A stretch of 6,535 nucleotides of DNA, from the IMG/VR virus record IMGVR_UViG_2657245634_000021, positions 1 through 6,535 of that record; one strand, 5' to 3'. This DNA comes from a virus (Duplodnaviria > Heunggongvirae > Uroviricota > Caudoviricetes). Position 1 is the stretch's first letter; every line of letters starts with the position of its first letter. Both the position numbers and the translations under genes were made by a program. The notes under the pieces were generated by a model. The model worked only from the letters and a program-made list of their open reading frames with translations, had not been told where the DNA came from and searched no databases. This document shows positions 1 to 6,535 of this stretch, piece by piece.

Positions 1-1101
1 ATGAAATTTACCGTAGAACGTGAGCATTTATTAAAACCGCTACAACAGGTGAGCGGTCCGTTAGGTGGTCGTCCTACGCTACCGATTCTCGGTAATCTGC
101 TGTTACAGGTTGCTGACGGTACGTTGTCGCTGACCGGTACTGATCTCGAGATGGAAATGGTGGCACGTGTTGCGCTGGTTCAGCCACACGAGCCAGGAGC
201 GACGACCGTTCCGGCGCGCAAATTCTTTGATATCTGCCGTGGTCTGCCTGAAGGCGCGGAAATTGCCGTGCAGCTGGAAGGTGAACGGATGCTGGTACGC
301 TCCGGGCGTAGCCGTTTTTCGCTGTCTACCCTGCCAGCGGCGGATTTCCCGAACCTCGATGACTGGCAGAGTGAAGTCGAATTTACCCTGCCGCAGGCAA
401 CGATGAAGCGTCTGATTGAAGCGACCCAGTTTTCTATGGCGCATCAGGACGTTCGCTATTACTTAAATGGTATGCTGTTTGAAACCGAAGGTGAAGAACT
501 GCGCACCGTGGCAACCGACGGCCACCGTCTGGCGGTCTGTTCAATGCCAATTGGTCAATCTTTGCCAAGCCATTCGGTGATCGTACCGCGTAAAGGCGTG
601 ATTGAACTGATGCGTATGCTCGACGGCGGCGACAATCCGCTGCGCGTACAGATTGGCAGCAACAACATTCGCGCCCACGTTGGCGACTTTATCTTCACCT
701 CCAAACTGGTGGATGGTCGCTTCCCGGATTATCGCCGCGTTCTGCCGAAGAACCCGGACAAACATCTGGAAGCTGGCTGCGATCTGCTCAAGCAGGCGTT
801 TGCTCGCGCGGCGATTCTCTCTAACGAGAAATTCCGCGGCGTACGTCTTTATGTCAGCGAAAACCAGCTGAAAATCACCGCCAACAACCCGGAACAGGAA
901 GAAGCGGAAGAGATCCTCGACGTTACCTATAGCGGTGCGGAGATGGAAATCGGCTTCAACGTCAGCTATGTGCTGGATGTTCTGAACGCGCTGAAATGCG
1001 AAAACGTCCGCATGATGCTGACCGATTCGGTTTCCAGCGTGCAGATTGAAGATGCCGCATCACAGTCGGCTGCCTATGTTGTCATGCCAATGAGACTGTA
1101 A
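1..1101 (+). CDS. dnaN: DNA polymerase III beta sliding clamp (DnaN), full length 366 aa
   Basis: Intact ORF from ATG at 1 to TAA at 1099-1101. The translation ([37 protein letters not shown]...VVMPMRL) matches my recollection of E. coli DnaN over its whole length. Its stop overlaps the next start as TAATG, as in the native dnaN-recF arrangement. Confidence 0.96.
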
Positions 1102-1601
1102 TGTCCCTCACCCGCTTGTTGATCCGCGATTTCCGCAACATTGAAACCGCGGATCTCGCTTTATCTCCCGGCTTTAACTTTCTGGTAGGTGCCAACGGCA
1201 GTGGCAAAACCAGCGTGCTGGAAGCCATCTATACGCTCGGCCATGGTCGGGCGTTTCGCAGTTTGCAGATTGGTCGCGTCATTCGCCATGAGCAGGAGGC
1301 ATTTGTTCTCCATGGGCGATTACAGGGCGAAGAGCGCGAGACGGCGATTGGCTTAACCAAGGACAAACAGGGCGACAGCAAAGTCCGCATCGACGGTACT
1401 GACGGGCATAAAGTCGCGGAACTGGCGCACCTGATGCCAATGCAGCTGATAACGCCAGAAGGGTTTACTTTACTCAACGGCGGCCCCAAATACAGAAGAG
1501 CATTCCTCGACTGGGGATGCTTTCACAACGAACCCGGATTTTTCACCGCCTGGAGCAATCTCAAGCGATTGCTCAAGCAGCGCAATGCGGCGCTGCGCCA
1601 G
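1101..1601 (+). pseudogene. recF: recF 5-prime fragment (about the first 167 codons), fused in frame to phage-derived sequence
   Basis: ATG at 1101 overlapping the dnaN stop. N-terminus [38 protein letters not shown] carries the RecF Walker A motif (GANGSGKT). RecF-like sequence is recognisable up to ...[14 protein letters not shown] (ending near 1601); after that the protein no longer resembles RecF, and the distal two-thirds of RecF (about 357 aa in E. coli, from memory) is absent. The hybrid ORF continues to a TGA at 1899-1901. Confidence 0.85.
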
Positions 1602-1901
1602 ACAAATGCGGAGCTGTACGAGTACCGCGAACAGAAAATTGCCGCCGGTTTTACGTGTCTGGCGGACGTCCCGGCGGACGATATCGACGGTGAAAGCATC
1701 AAAGTTTTTTACTACGAGCGCGCCGTGTGTGCGATGGCGACCGCGTCGCTTTATGAGCGTTATCGCGGCGTGGATGCCAGTGCGAAAGGTGACAAGAAGG
1801 CTGACAGCATTGACAGCACCATTGATGAGCTGTGGCGGGATATGCGCTGGGCGGTGGCGCGTATCCAGGACAAACCGCGCTGCATCGTGAGTCAAATCTG
1901 A
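1602..1901 (+). pseudogene. 3-prime fragment of the P2-type phage late gene upstream of X (probably head completion protein gpL), 5-prime end missing
   Basis: Same reading frame as the recF fragment. Translation [99 protein letters not shown] is unrelated to RecF. Its stop overlaps the start of X (TGATG at 1899-1903). Assignment to L is by position in the P2 late gene order (L-X-Y-K-lysA-lysB-R) and is not verified by search. Confidence 0.55.
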
Positions 1902-2104
1902 TGAAGACCTTTGCGCTACAGGGCGACACGCTCGACGCCATTTGTGTCCGGTATTACGGGCGCACTGAGGGCGTGGTCGAAGCCGTGCTCGCCGCAAATC
2001 CGGGACTGGCTGAACTGGGTGCAGTGCTGCCGCACGGCACCGCCGTCGAACTGCCCGACGTTCAGACCGCGCCCGTGGCTGAAACTGTCAATCTGTGGGA
2101 GTAA
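1901..2104 (+). CDS. X: P2-type phage tail protein X (gpX), 67 aa
   Basis: ATG at 1901 overlapping the upstream stop. Translation MKTFALQGDTLDAICVRYYGRTEGVVEAVLAANPGLAELGAVLPHGTAVELPDVQTAPVAETVNLWE matches recalled P2 gpX. The ORF-track start at 1832 is rejected as an upstream extension. Confidence 0.85.
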   Translation: MKTFALQGDTLDAICVRYYGRTEGVVEAVLAANPGLAELGAVLPHGTAVELPDVQTAPVAETVNLWE

Positions 2105-2107
2105 CGC

Positions 2108-2389
2108 ATGACAGCAGAAGAAAAAAGCGTCCTGTCGCTTTTTATGATTGGGGTGCTGATTGTTGTCGGCAAGGTGCTTGCCGGTGGTGAACCCATCACC
2201 CCGCGTCTGTTTATCGGGCGCATGTTGCTCGGTGGTTTTGTCTCGATGGTTGCCGGTGTTGTTCTGGTGCAGTTTCCTGACCTGTCACTGCCTGCGGTGT
2301 GCGGCATCGGCTCCATGCTGGGTATCGCCGGTTATCAGGTGATTGAGATTGCCATTCAGCGCCGCTTTAAGGGCAGGGGGAAACCGTAA
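2108..2389 (+). CDS. Y: P2-type holin (gpY), 93 aa
   Basis: ATG at 2108 with a GGGAG Shine-Dalgarno 6 nt upstream. The product is hydrophobic with membrane-spanning stretches (LSLFMIGVLIVVGKVLAGG..., GGFVSMVAGVVLVQF..., GIGSMLGIAGYQVI) and a basic C-terminus (RRFKGRGKP), typical of holins. Position and size fit P2 Y. Confidence 0.85.
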   Translation: MTAEEKSVLSLFMIGVLIVVGKVLAGGEPITPRLFIGRMLLGGFVSMVAGVVLVQFPDLSLPAVCGIGSMLGIAGYQVIEIAIQRRFKGRGKP

Positions 2390-2886
2390 TGCCGGTAATT
2401 AACACGCATCAGAATATCGCCGCCTTTCTCGACATGCTGGCGGTGTCCGAAGGGACGGCAAATCATCCGCTGACGAAAAACCGGGGCTATGACGTGATAG
2501 TCACCGGACTGGACGGGAAGCCGGAAATTTTCACCGACTACAGTGACCACCCGTTCGCGCATGGCCGACCGGCGAAGGTGTTTAACCGTCGCGGTGAAAA
2601 GTCCACGGCCTCCGGTCGCTATCAGCAGCTTTACCTGTTCTGGCCGCACTACCGCAAACAGCTTGCCCTGCCGGATTTCAGTCCGTTGTCACAGGACAGA
2701 CTCGCCATTCAGTTGATCCGCGAACGCGGTGCACTGGATGACATCCGGGCGGGACGCATTGAGCGCGCCATTTCACGCTGTCGCAATATCTGGGCGTCCC
2801 TGCCGGGTGCCGGTTACGGTCAGCGTGAGCATTCACTGGAAAAACTGGTCACCGTCTGGCGTACCGCTGGCGGCGTACCGGCTTAA
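2389..2886 (+). CDS. K: P2-type endolysin (gpK), 165 aa
   Basis: ATG at 2389 overlapping the Y stop (TAATG). Translation MPVINTHQNIAAFLDMLAVSEGTANHPLTKNRGYDVIVTG... matches recalled P2 gpK lysozyme. The holin-endolysin order is canonical. Confidence 0.9.
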   Translation: MPVINTHQNIAAFLDMLAVSEGTANHPLTKNRGYDVIVTGLDGKPEIFTDYSDHPFAHGRPAKVFNRRGEKSTASGRYQQLYLFWPHYRKQLALPDFSPLSQDRLAIQLIRERGALDDIRAGRIERAISRCRNIWASLPGAGYGQREHSLEKLVTVWRTAGGVPA

Positions 2887-2900
2887 ACGGAGTAAACACC

Positions 2901-3326
2901 ATGAAGAAATTATCCCTTTCACTGATGCTGAACGTGTCGCTGGTGATGATGCTGGCACTGTCCCTGATTTACCCGCAGAGCGTGGCCGTCAGTTTTGTCG
3001 CCGCCTGGGCGATTCTGGCGACGGTTATCTGTGTGGTTGCCGGTGGTGTCGGCGTGTATGCCACCGAGTATGTACTTGAACGCTACGGGCGGGAGCTGCC
3101 GCCGGAATCGCTGGCCGTGAAGATTGTCACGTCGCTGTTTTTGCAGCCGGTGCCGTGGCGCAGACGGGCGGCGGCTCTGGTGGTGATGGTGGCGACGTTT
3201 ATCTCGCTGGTCGCTGCCGGGTGGATTTTTACTGCGCTGATTTACCTCGTGGCGTCGGTGTTCTTCCGGCTGATACGTACGGCCTGTCGTCAGCGTTTTG
3301 AGGGGCGGGAACCATGTCAAAGCTGA
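2901..3326 (+). CDS. lysA: P2-type lysis accessory membrane protein LysA, 141 aa
   Basis: ATG at 2901 with GGAG upstream. The product is strongly hydrophobic with several predicted transmembrane segments. Position immediately after K matches P2 lysA. Confidence 0.8.
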   Translation: MKKLSLSLMLNVSLVMMLALSLIYPQSVAVSFVAAWAILATVICVVAGGVGVYATEYVLERYGRELPPESLAVKIVTSLFLQPVPWRRRAAALVVMVATFISLVAAGWIFTALIYLVASVFFRLIRTACRQRFEGREPCQS

Positions 3327-3784
3327 TGATTGTGCTGGTCGTGTTGTTATCGCTGGCGGTGGCCGGTCTGTTTCTGGCGAAGCATGAAAACGCCAGCCTG
3401 CGCACCTCGCTGGACAGGGCGAACAACGTCGCCAGCGGGCAGCAGACGACCATCACCATGCTGAAAAATCAGCTTCATGTTGCCCTCACCAGAGCAGACA
3501 AAAACGAGCTGGCGCAGGTGGCACTGCGTCAGGAACTGGAGAACGCGGCGAAGCGTGAAGCACAGCGCGAGAAAACCATCACGAGGTTACTGAATGAAAA
3601 CGAAGATTTTCGCCGCTGGTACGGCGCTGACCTGCCTGATGCTGTGCGCCGGTTGCACCAGCGCCCCGCCTGCACCGACGCCAGTGATTGTCCCCAACGC
3701 CTGCCCGAAAGTGAGTCTTTGCCCGATGCCGGGCAGCGCCCCGGAGACGAACGGCGATTTAAGTGCCGATATCCGGCAGCTTGA
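3314..3784 (+). CDS. lysB: P2-type LysB, Rz-like inner-membrane spanin, 156 aa as read
   Basis: ATG at 3314 overlaps the lysA 3-prime end by 13 nt. N-terminal transmembrane segment (MSKLMIVLVVLLSLAVAGLFLA) followed by a charged, probably helical periplasmic region, typical of i-spanins. Position matches P2 lysB. Confidence 0.8.
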   Translation: MSKLMIVLVVLLSLAVAGLFLAKHENASLRTSLDRANNVASGQQTTITMLKNQLHVALTRADKNELAQVALRQELENAAKREAQREKTITRLLNENEDFRRWYGADLPDAVRRLHQRPACTDASDCPQRLPESESLPDAGQRPGDERRFKCRYPAA

Positions 3785-3884
3785 GAACGCGCTGGCGCGC
3801 TGTGCCAGCCAGGTAAAAATGATTAAACACTGTCAGGACGAAAACGATGCTCAAACCCGACAGCCTGCGCAGGGCGCTGACTGA
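3594..3884 (+). CDS. lysC: P2-type LysC, Rz1-like outer-membrane lipoprotein spanin, 96 aa
   Basis: ATG at 3594 with GAGG 7 nt upstream, in an alternative frame inside lysB, extending past the lysB stop and into the start of R. Signal peptide with a lipobox-like Cys (MKTKIFAAGTALTCLMLCAGC) followed by a Pro-rich segment (TSAPPAPTPVIVPNACP), hallmarks of o-spanins. Confidence 0.75.
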   Translation: MKTKIFAAGTALTCLMLCAGCTSAPPAPTPVIVPNACPKVSLCPMPGSAPETNGDLSADIRQLENALARCASQVKMIKHCQDENDAQTRQPAQGAD

Positions 3885-4149
3885 TGCCGTCACGGTGCTG
3901 AAAACCAGTCCCGAGATGCTGCGGATATTCGTGGATAACGGGAGTATTGCCTCCACACTGGCGGCGTCGCTGTCATTTGAAAAGCGTTACACGCTCAATG
4001 TCATTGTGACCGACTTTACCGGTGATTTTGACCTGCTCATCGTGCCGGTGCTGGCGTGGCTGCGGGAAAATCAGCCCGACATCATGACCACCGACGAAGG
4101 CCAGAAAAAGGGCTTCACGTTTTATGCAGACATCAACAATGACAGCAGC
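3847..4149 (+). pseudogene. R: P2-type tail completion protein gpR, 5-prime fragment (about 100 codons), 3-prime end replaced
   Basis: ATG at 3847. Translation MLKPDSLRRALTDAVTVLKTSPEMLRIFVDNGSIASTLAASLSFEKRYTLNVIVTDFTGDFDLLIVPVLAWLRENQPDIMTTDEGQKKGFTFYADINNDSS matches recalled P2 gpR. The remaining 24 codons of the ORF (to 4224) are low-complexity and are the antisense of a well-formed ParA-like coding sequence, so I place the breakpoint near 4147-4160. The endpoint is approximate. Confidence 0.7.
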
Positions 4150-4361
4150 TTTGATATCAGCATATCAAATTTCTCAACAAGGGTTATTGCTGGTAACAGT
4201 CCTGCAGCTTCTCGTTCCGCATGATGTTTTGCGGCTGTTCGTTGTAGATCTCCGTTTAACAGGCAGACTTCCCTTCCTTTATTTGCTAGAGCAATAGCCA
4301 GGTTTGATGCAATGGTAGTTTTCCCTGAACCACCTTTGTTCCCACCAACTACAGTAATCAT
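4150..4361 (-). pseudogene. ParA-like (type Ib, deviant Walker A) partition ATPase, N-terminal fragment of about 70 codons
   Basis: Minus-strand ATG at 4359-4361 with GAGG 5-8 nt upstream. Translation MITVVGGNKGGSGKTTIASNLAIALANKGREVCLLNGDLQRTAA... has the deviant Walker A KGGSGKTT (4314-4346) and the downstream D-x-Q region typical of ParA/MinD/Soj ATPases. The ORF ends after 79 aa where it runs into antisense P2 R sequence; intact ParA proteins are about 200 aa or more. Confidence 0.7.
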
Positions 4362-4589
4362 TGCAACCTCATAAATATGATGTGTGAAGTATGATGATAT
4401 TTTGACACGGTAACCTGAGGTGTCAATATGTGTTCATATTTATGAAGTATGAAATATGAAGTGTGTCATGTGATGTAATAAATAATACTTGTGTTTTGTG
4501 ATTTCATAACTATGATAGTGCTCAAATTGAGTATTACATTGCAACCAGAAACAATGATTTACTCAGATTGAGTATTTAAGGGGCTATAG
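4362..4589. promoter_or_regulatory. AT-rich divergent intergenic region with iteron-like repeats; candidate parC-type centromere and promoter/operator
   Basis: Four copies of the octamer TATGA(A/T)G(T/A) at 4376, 4390, 4441 and 4455, as two pairs with 14-bp spacing. The pairs flank a 7-bp inverted repeat TTGACAC (4402-4408) / GTGTCAA (4420-4426) that presents TTGACA, a perfect -35 hexamer, on both strands. A TATGAT -10-like hexamer sits at 4511-4516 and an AAGGGG Shine-Dalgarno at 4577-4582 before the parM ATG. Function is inferred by analogy with R1 parC, where ParR-bound iterons flank the promoter. Confidence 0.5.
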
Positions 4590-5561
4590 ATGAACGTATA
4601 CTGCGATGATGGTTCAACAACAATCAAGTTGGCATGGAATGATAATGGGGAAATCTGTAAGTCGTTGTCGCAAAACTCATTTCGTCATGGATGGAAGGTT
4701 GACGGGTTAGGAATTCGCCAGACATTTAACTATGAACTGGATGGTAAAAAATACACGTATGATGAAGTTAGCAACCAATCTATTCTTACGACTCATATTG
4801 AGTATCAATATACGGATGTTAACCTGTTAGCTGTGCATCACGCTTTACTGAATAGTGGATTAGCGCCTCAGCCTGTATCATTGACTGTGACTTTGCCTAT
4901 CAGTGAGTTCTATACGAAAGAGTGTCAAAAAAATGAACTCAACATTCAGCGTAAAATTGAGAATTTAATGGGGCCGATTCGTCTTAATAAAGGCGATGTT
5001 TTCACCATTGAACACGTTGATGTGATGCCTGAATCATTGCCAGCTGTGTTTTCTCGTCTGGTCGTGGATAAAGTTGGTCAGTTCGAAAAATCGCTGGTAG
5101 TTGATATTGGCGGCACTACGCTTGATGTTGGTGTTATCGTTGGTCAATTTGACTCTGTAAGTGCCATTCATGGTAATTCTGGCATTGGTGTATCTTCAGT
5201 TACGAAAGCTGCAATGAGTGCATTGCGCATGGCATCCAGTGATACCAGTTTCCTCGTTGCAGATGAATTGATTAAACGTCGTAATGACCCGGACTTTGTT
5301 CGGCAGGTTATAAATGACGAAACAAAAACTGATCTGGTCCTTAATACCATTGAGGGGGCTATTGCCAGTTTGGGGGAGCAAGTAGTCAATGAGCTCGGTG
5401 ATTTCCATCATGTGAATCGTGTTTATGTTGTCGGTGGTGGGGCCCCGTTGATCTATGATTCGATAAAAACGGCATGGCACCATCTTGGGCAAAAAGTAGT
5501 GATGATGGAGTCGCCACAGACAGCACTGGTTGAAGCTATCGCGGCTTTCAAAGAGGAGTAA
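4590..5561 (+). CDS. parM: ParM/StbA-family actin-like plasmid segregation ATPase, 323 aa
   Basis: ATG at 4590 with an AAGGGG Shine-Dalgarno. Actin-fold phosphate-binding motifs DDGSTTIKL near the N-terminus and VVDIGGTTLDV mid-protein. Collinear similarity to recalled plasmid R1 ParM (for example FNY, YQYTDVN..AVHHALL, FTI..V.VMPES.PA, GVS.VT, VVGGGA). Confidence 0.9.
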   Translation: MNVYCDDGSTTIKLAWNDNGEICKSLSQNSFRHGWKVDGLGIRQTFNYELDGKKYTYDEVSNQSILTTHIEYQYTDVNLLAVHHALLNSGLAPQPVSLTVTLPISEFYTKECQKNELNIQRKIENLMGPIRLNKGDVFTIEHVDVMPESLPAVFSRLVVDKVGQFEKSLVVDIGGTTLDVGVIVGQFDSVSAIHGNSGIGVSSVTKAAMSALRMASSDTSFLVADELIKRRNDPDFVRQVINDETKTDLVLNTIEGAIASLGEQVVNELGDFHHVNRVYVVGGGAPLIYDSIKTAWHHLGQKVVMMESPQTALVEAIAAFKEE

Positions 5562-5565
5562 TATT

Positions 5566-5958
5566 GTGGACGATGAACGGAAAAGGAAAAAATACACACT
5601 TTATCTGCATCCGGAAAAAGCTGCAGACTTTCAAACTTTGGAAGCGATAGAGTCCGTTCCGCGTTCTGAGCGTGGTGAGCTGTTCCGGAATGCATTTATT
5701 TCTGGAATGGCGTTACACCAACTTGATCCTCGCCTGCCTGTATTGCTGACTGCCATTTTGAGCGAGGAGTTTTCAGCAGATCAGGTTGTAACCTTACTCA
5801 GTCAGACGACTGGATGGAAGCCTTCTCAGGCCGATATCAGAGCTGTGTTGACTGAACTCGGTGCTTCGCAATTTGCTGAAAAAATGCCTCCTTCTGCTAC
5901 TGATTCGGTGCAGGAGGCAATGAATGATGTGCGTCTTAAAATGAAAAAATTATTCTGA
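5566..5958 (+). CDS. parR: ParR/StbB-like centromere-binding adaptor protein, about 130 aa
   Basis: Proposed GTG start at 5566, 7 nt after a strong AAGAGGAG Shine-Dalgarno formed by the last parM codons; stop TGA at 5956-5958. The segment ESVPRSERGELFRNAFISGMALHQLDPRLPVLL resembles R1 ParR (SIPQGERSRLNRAALTAGLALYRQDPRTPFLL, from memory). The ORF-track ATG at 5530 lies inside parM with no Shine-Dalgarno and is rejected. Confidence 0.75.
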   Translation: MDDERKRKKYTLYLHPEKAADFQTLEAIESVPRSERGELFRNAFISGMALHQLDPRLPVLLTAILSEEFSADQVVTLLSQTTGWKPSQADIRAVLTELGASQFAEKMPPSATDSVQEAMNDVRLKMKKLF

Positions 5959-5969
5959 TATATCAGAAT
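5944..5969 (-). terminator. Possible weak intrinsic terminator for the minus-strand umuC-like gene
   Basis: Perfect 18-bp palindrome ATTCTGATATATCAGAAT (5952-5969) about 20 nt past the umuC-like stop (5990-5992), followed on the minus strand by a U-tract (complement of AAAAAA at 5945-5950). The stem is AU-rich and has no real loop, so terminator strength is doubtful. It overlaps the parR stop codon. Confidence 0.3.
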
Positions 5970-5989
5970 GAAGCAATGGGGATCTCAGT

Positions 5990-6535
5990 CTATTGTGTTG
6001 TATACGAAGGCGATAGCATTTCCTGTTTCATTTGCCATTCAGGGGCGGTTCCTCGCCCCGCAAACCACACTTTCCCTTTTCCCGACTGGTTCAGTTCATC
6101 GAGTGTTTTCATTAACTTTTCACTGTTTTTACGGGGCTGGATTTCATCAAATAATCCCGGCTGCGCTATACCCGATGGTGTGAAATCAGCCAGCATGACT
6201 CCTGCCTTCATATAGCGGTACCCTTCACGCCAGACATGGTTTAAGGCTCTGCATGCGGCGGCAATAATGTCCCGGCTGTCCTGTGTGGGCAATGAAAGCT
6301 TTTCCACAGCGGCATTGCTGTAACAGGGTTCTTTTACTGCAAAGGGGGATGTCCGTACAAATGTCGTCACCTGCCGGCAATACTGACGCTCCCCACGTAG
6401 TTTCTCTGCGGCCCGCTCAGCATACTGAACAACAGCCTGGTGCATGGCATCTTTGTCTGTGATTCGTTCACCAAAACTGCGACTACAGACAATCTGCTGT
6501 TTTGCCGGTGGTGCTTCTTCCAGGGATATGCAGGA
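5990..6535 (-). CDS. umuC: UmuC/MucB/ImpB-family Y-family DNA polymerase (Pol V catalytic subunit), C-terminal about 180 codons; 5-prime end beyond the window
   Basis: Minus-strand frame is open from the window edge (6535) to the TAG at 5990-5992; I translated 6446-6535 by hand (SCISLEEAPPAKQQIVCSRSFGERITDKDA) and it continues into the ORF-track protein. The sequence RSFGERITDKDAMHQAVVQYAERAAEKLRGERQYCRQVTTFVRTSPF...VWFAGRGTAPEWQMKQEMLSPSYTTQ is collinear with the recalled UmuC C-terminus (RAAEKLR, TSPF, FAGQG..QWQMK..MLSP.YTT). Confidence 0.85.
   Translation of the reverse strand, partial: SCISLEEAPPAKQQIVCSRSFGERITDKDAMHQAVVQYAERAAEKLRGERQYCRQVTTFVRTSPFAVKEPCYSNAAVEKLSLPTQDSRDIIAAACRALNHVWREGYRYMKAGVMLADFTPSGIAQPGLFDEIQPRKNSEKLMKTLDELNQSGKGKVWFAGRGTAPEWQMKQEMLSPSYTTQ

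Follow-up and report, generated by a model that had tools for sequence, protein, structure and literature searches.

P2-like (Peduovirus) prophages carry their late genes in the order L-X-Y-K-lysA-lysB-lysC-R, and the same order is found in the window analyzed here, a stretch of 6,535 nucleotides in which a phage segment stands between a piece of bacterial chromosome and a piece of plasmid. Unlike such a prophage, the window holds only a slice that is cut within L at one end and within R at the other, and that lacks att, int, cos, the capsid genes and the tail module. This slice comprises 2,564 nt, from mid-L to mid-R, and is 97.5% identical to Peduovirus P2 (window 1600-4163). On its left it is fused in frame to the 5' part of recF (junction A), and on its right it is butted against plasmid DNA (junction B). 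Comparison with closed genomes indicates that junction A is very probably an artefact of the draft genome assembly or of its library, absent from the cell.

The window corresponds to the final 6,535 b, bar 2, of the draft contig CCBW01000004.1 (27,240 b; GCA_000939035.1). The source of this assembly is an enteroaggregative-type E. coli very near the O111:H21 strain 15A, and the three pieces of the window map to three separate places in the one closed genome of that strain (GCF_049570225.1). Among the complete E. coli genomes, plasmids and phages searched, no single record covers more than 39% of the window. Its features, in window coordinates, are as follows.

1-1101, + strand: dnaN (DNA polymerase III beta clamp), complete; the first mosaic piece, with three DNA_pol3_beta Pfam domains
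1101-1601, + strand: 5' part of recF, codons 1-167; exact match to 15A recF up to 1601
1101-1901, + strand: chimeric 266-aa ORF, RecF(1-167)-GpL(71-169), from the ORF list
1584-1616, + strand: direct repeat AATGCGG[C/A]GCTG flanking junction A, one copy per parent
1600-1601, no strand: junction A, dinucleotide AG (contig CCBW01000004.1 22303-22304), where the extensions from both sides overlap by 2 nt
1602-1901, + strand: 3' part of gene L (head completion protein), codons 71-169 and stop; 100% identical to the 15A prophage, Phage_GPL profile
1901-2104, + strand: P2-type X, by annotation of the identical 15A stretch; Pfam Phage_tail_X in the region
2108-2389, + strand: holin Y, by 15A annotation; Pfam Phage_holin_3_2 in the region
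2389-2886, + strand: endolysin K, by annotation of the identical 15A stretch
2901-3326, + strand: lysA, by annotation of the identical 15A stretch
3314-3784, + strand: lysB, by annotation of the identical 15A stretch
3594-3884, + strand: lysC, by annotation of the identical 15A stretch
3847-4163, + strand: 5' part of gene R (tail completion), cut in codon 106; P2_Phage_GpR profile positions 1-107 of 133
4163, no strand: junction B, blunt prophage-plasmid join with 1 nt (T) ambiguous (contig CCBW01000004.1 position 24866)
4164-4361, - strand: plasmid ParA-like AAA ATPase gene, N-terminal 66 codons only (pDEC15A-1 KP524_RS26350; CbiA/ParA/MipZ Pfam)
4590-5561, + strand: parM/stbA (pDEC15A-1 match; Pfam)
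5566-5958, + strand: stbB-like partition gene (pDEC15A-1 match; Pfam)
5990-6535, - strand: 3' part of umuC, cut by the contig end, 2 nt past the window

Exact-match extension against the closed genome of 15A places the breakpoint of junction A between 1599/1600 and 1601/1602. The dinucleotide AG (1600-1601) contains the only bases assignable to either parent, and zero bases are inserted. Leftward, window 1-1601 is 100% identical to NZ_CP077477.1 3172582-3174182 (+); rightward, window 1600-4163 is 100% identical to 15A chromosome 2926523-2923960 (-), both flanks being identical to their parents up to the join, and the G+C content barely shifts across it. At the codon level, CAG (recF codon 167) directly precedes ACA (codon 71 of L, the phage gene for head completion), and the frame is kept, an outcome with a prior of 1 in 3. 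The earlier note on this DNA, made from the letters alone, had recF ending after about codon 167 and continuing in frame into a P2-type late gene, which is confirmed to the base by the exact-match extension. It also correctly described a switch with no stop codon, spacer, att site, integrase or IS end: both parents are continuous at 100%. In strain 15A, recF is intact with gyrB adjoining, and recF (+, 3.174 Mb) and L (-, 2.927 Mb) lie 248 kb apart on opposite strands.

The fused ORF is composed entirely of its two parents. Residues 1-167 equal RecF 1-167 (167/167 identical), residues 168-266 equal GpL 71-169 (100% identical), and the first 70 residues of GpL are missing. In Pfam, residues 3-120 match SMC_N, and residues 159-266 match Phage_GPL over profile positions 32-139 (of 139). 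The RecF part presumably retains Walker A and has lost the signature motif and Walker B of the C-terminal half. Residues 168-266 give no significant alignment to RecF 168-357, and in a single pairwise comparison the 99 C-terminal residues of the fusion show no significant similarity to RecF, the best match being 18 aa at E=0.05. A search of 5.8 billion protein clusters returned 1,460 matches at E<=1e-10, of which the best 120 listed are all RecF, none with a GpL domain. A RecF homologue aligning past residue 167, named beforehand as the observation that would speak against a chimeric reading, was found neither in the pairwise alignments nor among these best 120 of 1,460 cluster matches.

A separate question is whether codon 167 marks a truncation hot spot in RecF, and this idea was rejected: several 167-aa RecF entries in the protein cluster that contains the fusion ORF are frameshift products ending in ...MRRCAR, and the equal length is coincidental.

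Searches for junction A elsewhere cover genomes, plasmids, phages and metagenomes. The junction is found in 0/5,426 complete E. coli genomes, and in the BLASTN check that had been proposed for it, a 301-b probe over the junction is split at 1601 in all 5,425 matching complete genomes. It is absent from 72,556 plasmids and 50,697 phage records, and exact junction-spanning patterns occur in none of the GTDB representative genomes, JGI metagenome contigs and IMG/VR records. The exact 266-aa fusion protein is encoded on one contig only among 153 billion gene positions. A genome carrying the junction inside a prophage context, the second observation named as contrary, was likewise not found in the genome, plasmid, phage, GTDB, metagenome and IMG/VR searches.

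Junction A is flanked by a direct repeat matching at 11 of 12 positions, AATGCGGCGCTG on the recF side (1584-1595) and AATGCGGAGCTG on the phage side (1605-1616), which encodes N-A-A/E-L, in frame, in both parents. The heptamer AATGCGG, reported earlier at 1584-1590 and 1605-1611, is correctly positioned and forms part of this longer repeat. Its proposed role as junction microhomology does not stand: each parent contributes a copy of its own, at distances of 9 nt (left) and 3 nt (right) from the join, and neither copy has been lost. The repeat is not the crossover site because a crossover inside it would leave one copy, and the true overlap of the parents is AG only. By chance, a flanking AATGCGG heptamer is expected at 1.3-3.5% of random joins, and the empirical probability of the 11/12 repeat at a random blunt join is about 0.0003-0.004. 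None of the other three junctions shows a comparable repeat (P = 0.10, 0.98 and 0.98). No mechanism fits the flanking 11/12 repeat, which is at most a coincidence. As for the overlaps themselves, simulated random blunt joins of these loci have an ambiguity of at least 1 nt in 44% of cases and of at least 2 nt in 16%, so the 2, 1 and 1 nt seen at the joins are unremarkable.

Junction B joins codon 106 of gene R to the reverse strand of the ParA-like ATPase gene, cut at codon 66. BLAST alignments (plasmid from 4150, phage to 4163-4167) gave an apparent overlap of 14-18 nt, which was rejected as a mismatched gapped extension; base by base, only T4163 is common. Two chimeric ORFs result, 3847-4224 (+) and 4122-4361 (-), the former opening in gene R and closing at a stop codon in the plasmid DNA (4224). 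At ~0.58-0.61, the G+C content of the phage piece is higher than that of the plasmid piece (~0.35-0.45). Searches of complete E. coli genomes, of metagenome contigs and of GTDB representatives did not find junction B. Together with the same contig end, it is present in two, possibly three, deposited assemblies, which points to a reproducible cause: reads or a reference in common, or real DNA.

The plasmid piece itself (4163-6535) is a segment of an F-type virulence plasmid, parA'-parM-stbB-umuC', 99.96% identical to pDEC15A-1; a single true SNP separates the two, at window 4538. The AT-rich interval 4362-4589 upstream of parM contains inverted repeats and degenerate direct repeats ATGAAGT/ATGATGT (4373-4396, 4438-4461, 4452-4475). 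It resembles the parC-type centromere/operator commonly found at ParMR-type partition loci, which is ordinary plasmid biology. At the other end of the piece, CCBW01000004.1 and a second draft contig, CDRY01000017.1, stop at an identical umuC base where the 15A plasmid continues. This common end could reflect an IS insertion in the plasmid of this lineage, or a shared origin of the data or the assembly. IS3-family insertions are seen in umuC of some related plasmids.

The second contig, CDRY01000017.1 (GCA_001373235.1, 5,996 b), is 100% identical to window 1600-6535. Because this identity includes SNP 4538 and the contig end, the sequence places it in the same lineage as the window's contig, or makes it a product of the same data. 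It also carries both chimeric ORFs of junction B. To the left of the equivalent of window 1600, it runs through an intact L into M, not into recF. Its own join lies ~490 b further left, where the plasmid usher gene agg3C meets phage gene M. The ten bases after this join (CDRY01000017.1 559-568) read NNNTNNGNNN, in which T and G are the sole positions where agg3C and the phage agree, and each N is a difference. Judging by this pattern, NNNTNNGNNN is a software-made consensus computed across two loci. A base called where the parents agree, and an N where they differ, implies that joins in these assemblies pass through a computed consensus, made by software and not by the cell.

A third blunt join is present in CCBW01000004.1 itself, 7 kb upstream at contig position 15167, where yfiR' meets mnmE' with 1 nt common. 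The left piece is rimM-trmD-rplS-yfiB-dgcN-yfiR' (15A 4394644-4398010), the right piece is mnmE'-yidC-rnpA-rpmH-dnaA-dnaN-recF' (7,138 b), and the yfiR and mnmE loci are 1.2 Mb apart in 15A. The join yields a called 374-aa chimera in which TrmE domains are recognized, along with a faint match to DUF4154 (YfiR). Within 12 kb, the contig contains at least three blunt joins, each through unique genes, with overlaps of 1, 2 and 1 nt (positions 3364, 10500-10501 and 13063 in the 15.4-kb retrieved part of the contig). Ordinary chromosome forms the left part of CCBW01000004.1.

Among the prophages matched, the 15A prophage alone is 100% identical to window 1600-4163. It is complete, with Q (portal) and the terminase through the tail genes. 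The lysB ORF is 156 aa long in the window and extends well into lysC. The identical lysB DNA of 15A is annotated as a pseudogene by PGAP, and the 156-aa product is widespread (214 blocks); the pseudogene call is probably an annotation quirk of overlapping spanin genes. A 9-kb deletion linking recF to a nearby P2 prophage was considered and rejected, since the closed records with late genes at 10-14 kb start at gpA and show no adjacency. Several closed E. coli records (e.g. NZ_CP062865.1) begin at the gpA of a P2-like prophage and not at dnaA, presumably through an automatic start-fixing tool that chose the wrong replication gene.

In the reading that we prefer, CCBW01000004.1 consists of unrelated chromosome, prophage and plasmid pieces of one strain, butted end to end. 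By our estimate, the joins were probably created in silico, by assembly, contig merging or gap-free scaffolding; the alternative that sheared fragments were ligated to one another in the sequencing library is possible, though doubtful. The earlier note had suspected an unnatural junction deriving from an assembly or a clone, and the mosaic contig, with at least three joins and intact loci in 15A, supports that suspicion. Several points count against an artefact: junction B and the contig end recur in a second assembly, the joins are blunt and lie in unique sequence, unlike repeat-driven assembler error, and the 11/12 repeat is tied to no assembly mechanism. The main contrary view is a real rearrangement in the isolate, in which illegitimate recombination of the microhomology-poor, end-joining type between recF and L, for example at one end of a 248-kb inversion, would have been accompanied by further prophage-plasmid breaks. 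The orientation of recF (+) and L (-) in 15A fits an inversion end, end joining could leave overlaps of 1-2 nt, junction B is found again in another assembly, and the flanking 11/12 repeat is improbable by chance. However, such a rearrangement needs at least three independent breaks in 12 kb, involving loci 0.25 and 1.2 Mb apart as well as a plasmid, and the phage remnant is merely 2.56 kb. In the sister assembly, L is intact at the junction A site, that assembly's own join is visibly a computed consensus, and the recF-L join is in none of the closed genomes, the near-identical 15A included. A rearrangement of this kind is improbable. It is very improbable that the whole mosaic is physically real in the enteroaggregative-type O111:H21 isolate, as a small-scale 'shattering' of chromosome, P2-like prophage and pAA-type plasmid DNA repaired by microhomology-poor end joining, with junction B inherited by related isolates and junction A specific to one of them. 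An IS- or transposon-mediated rearrangement was also considered and set aside: the sequence is parental to the last base with nothing inserted, and the sole repeat is the 11/12 AATGCGGNGCTG, each copy of which is parental.

The remaining explanations fare worse. A man-made chimera, in which a dnaN-recF' fragment was ligated to phage and plasmid fragments and deposited as a genome, would match the blunt joins without microhomology, which resemble ligation, and the origin of all pieces in the DNA of one strain. Yet no vector, linker, restriction site or adaptor is seen at any join when the parental alignments are inspected by eye, and the record is a WGS contig with ordinary chromosome at its left, making this origin highly unlikely. 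Integration of a natural P2-like prophage into recF, with or without later decay to a remnant, would put phage DNA right beside recF, but the join lies 208 nt inside L, a late gene distant from attP and int. It shows no att core, integrase or duplication, and the window as a whole is without int or att. The phage stretch ends in gene R at the plasmid join, and the complete prophage of 15A is located elsewhere. The chance of such an integration is negligible, and the initial judgment that this is not the end of a natural prophage is borne out by a stretch of 2.56 kb that runs from mid-L to mid-R and then into plasmid, with the complete prophage 248 kb off in 15A. Scarcely conceivable, too, is a true variant of the RecF family, or a fusion protein that functions with a novel C-terminal domain. 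The single uninterrupted ORF of 266 aa would be expected of one, but its residues 168-266 are GpL, both domains occur together in none of the best 120 of 1,460 matches, the protein is confined to one contig, and it is without the RecF signature and Walker B motifs. The RecF-GpL 'fusion protein' would rather be the gene-caller's product of a mis-join and, as such, functionless.

Junction A constitutes no new element, mechanism or protein. Its significance lies in data hygiene: multi-piece chimeric contigs are present in a public draft assembly, and their cut-and-fused ORFs have reached the protein collections. Junction B's 79-aa ParA'/phage chimera is listed in RefSeq (WP_283236559.1) and in UniRef100. 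With one half from RecF and the other from GpL, the RecF-GpL chimera draws RecF fragments and GpL (head-completion) fragments into a single 90%-identity cluster. Searches aimed at 'novel fusions', 'prophages in odd places' or 'plasmid-chromosome hybrids' will continue to meet such contigs, and piecewise mapping of the window to a closed genome of the same lineage provides a quick filter.

Set against known systems, junction A resembles microhomology-mediated illegitimate recombination or alternative end joining in E. coli in that 1-2 nt are shared and nothing is inserted. Its overlap is at the random level (2 nt, AG, are common at the breakpoint; P(>=2 nt)=0.16 for random joins), and the 12-nt repeat is kept twice and hence is no pairing site. 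The likeness to chimeric draft contigs is broader: distant loci and replicons are made adjacent, genes are cut mid-codon, a single contig holds several joins, the join is missing from the closed genomes of the lineage, an alternative assembly disagrees, and a sister join carries an N-containing consensus. Whereas typical assembler mis-joins fall at shared repeats, those of the window are blunt and pass through unique sequence with 1-2 nt common, which points to gap-free scaffolding, contig merging or ligation chimeras in the library rather than to repeat collapse.
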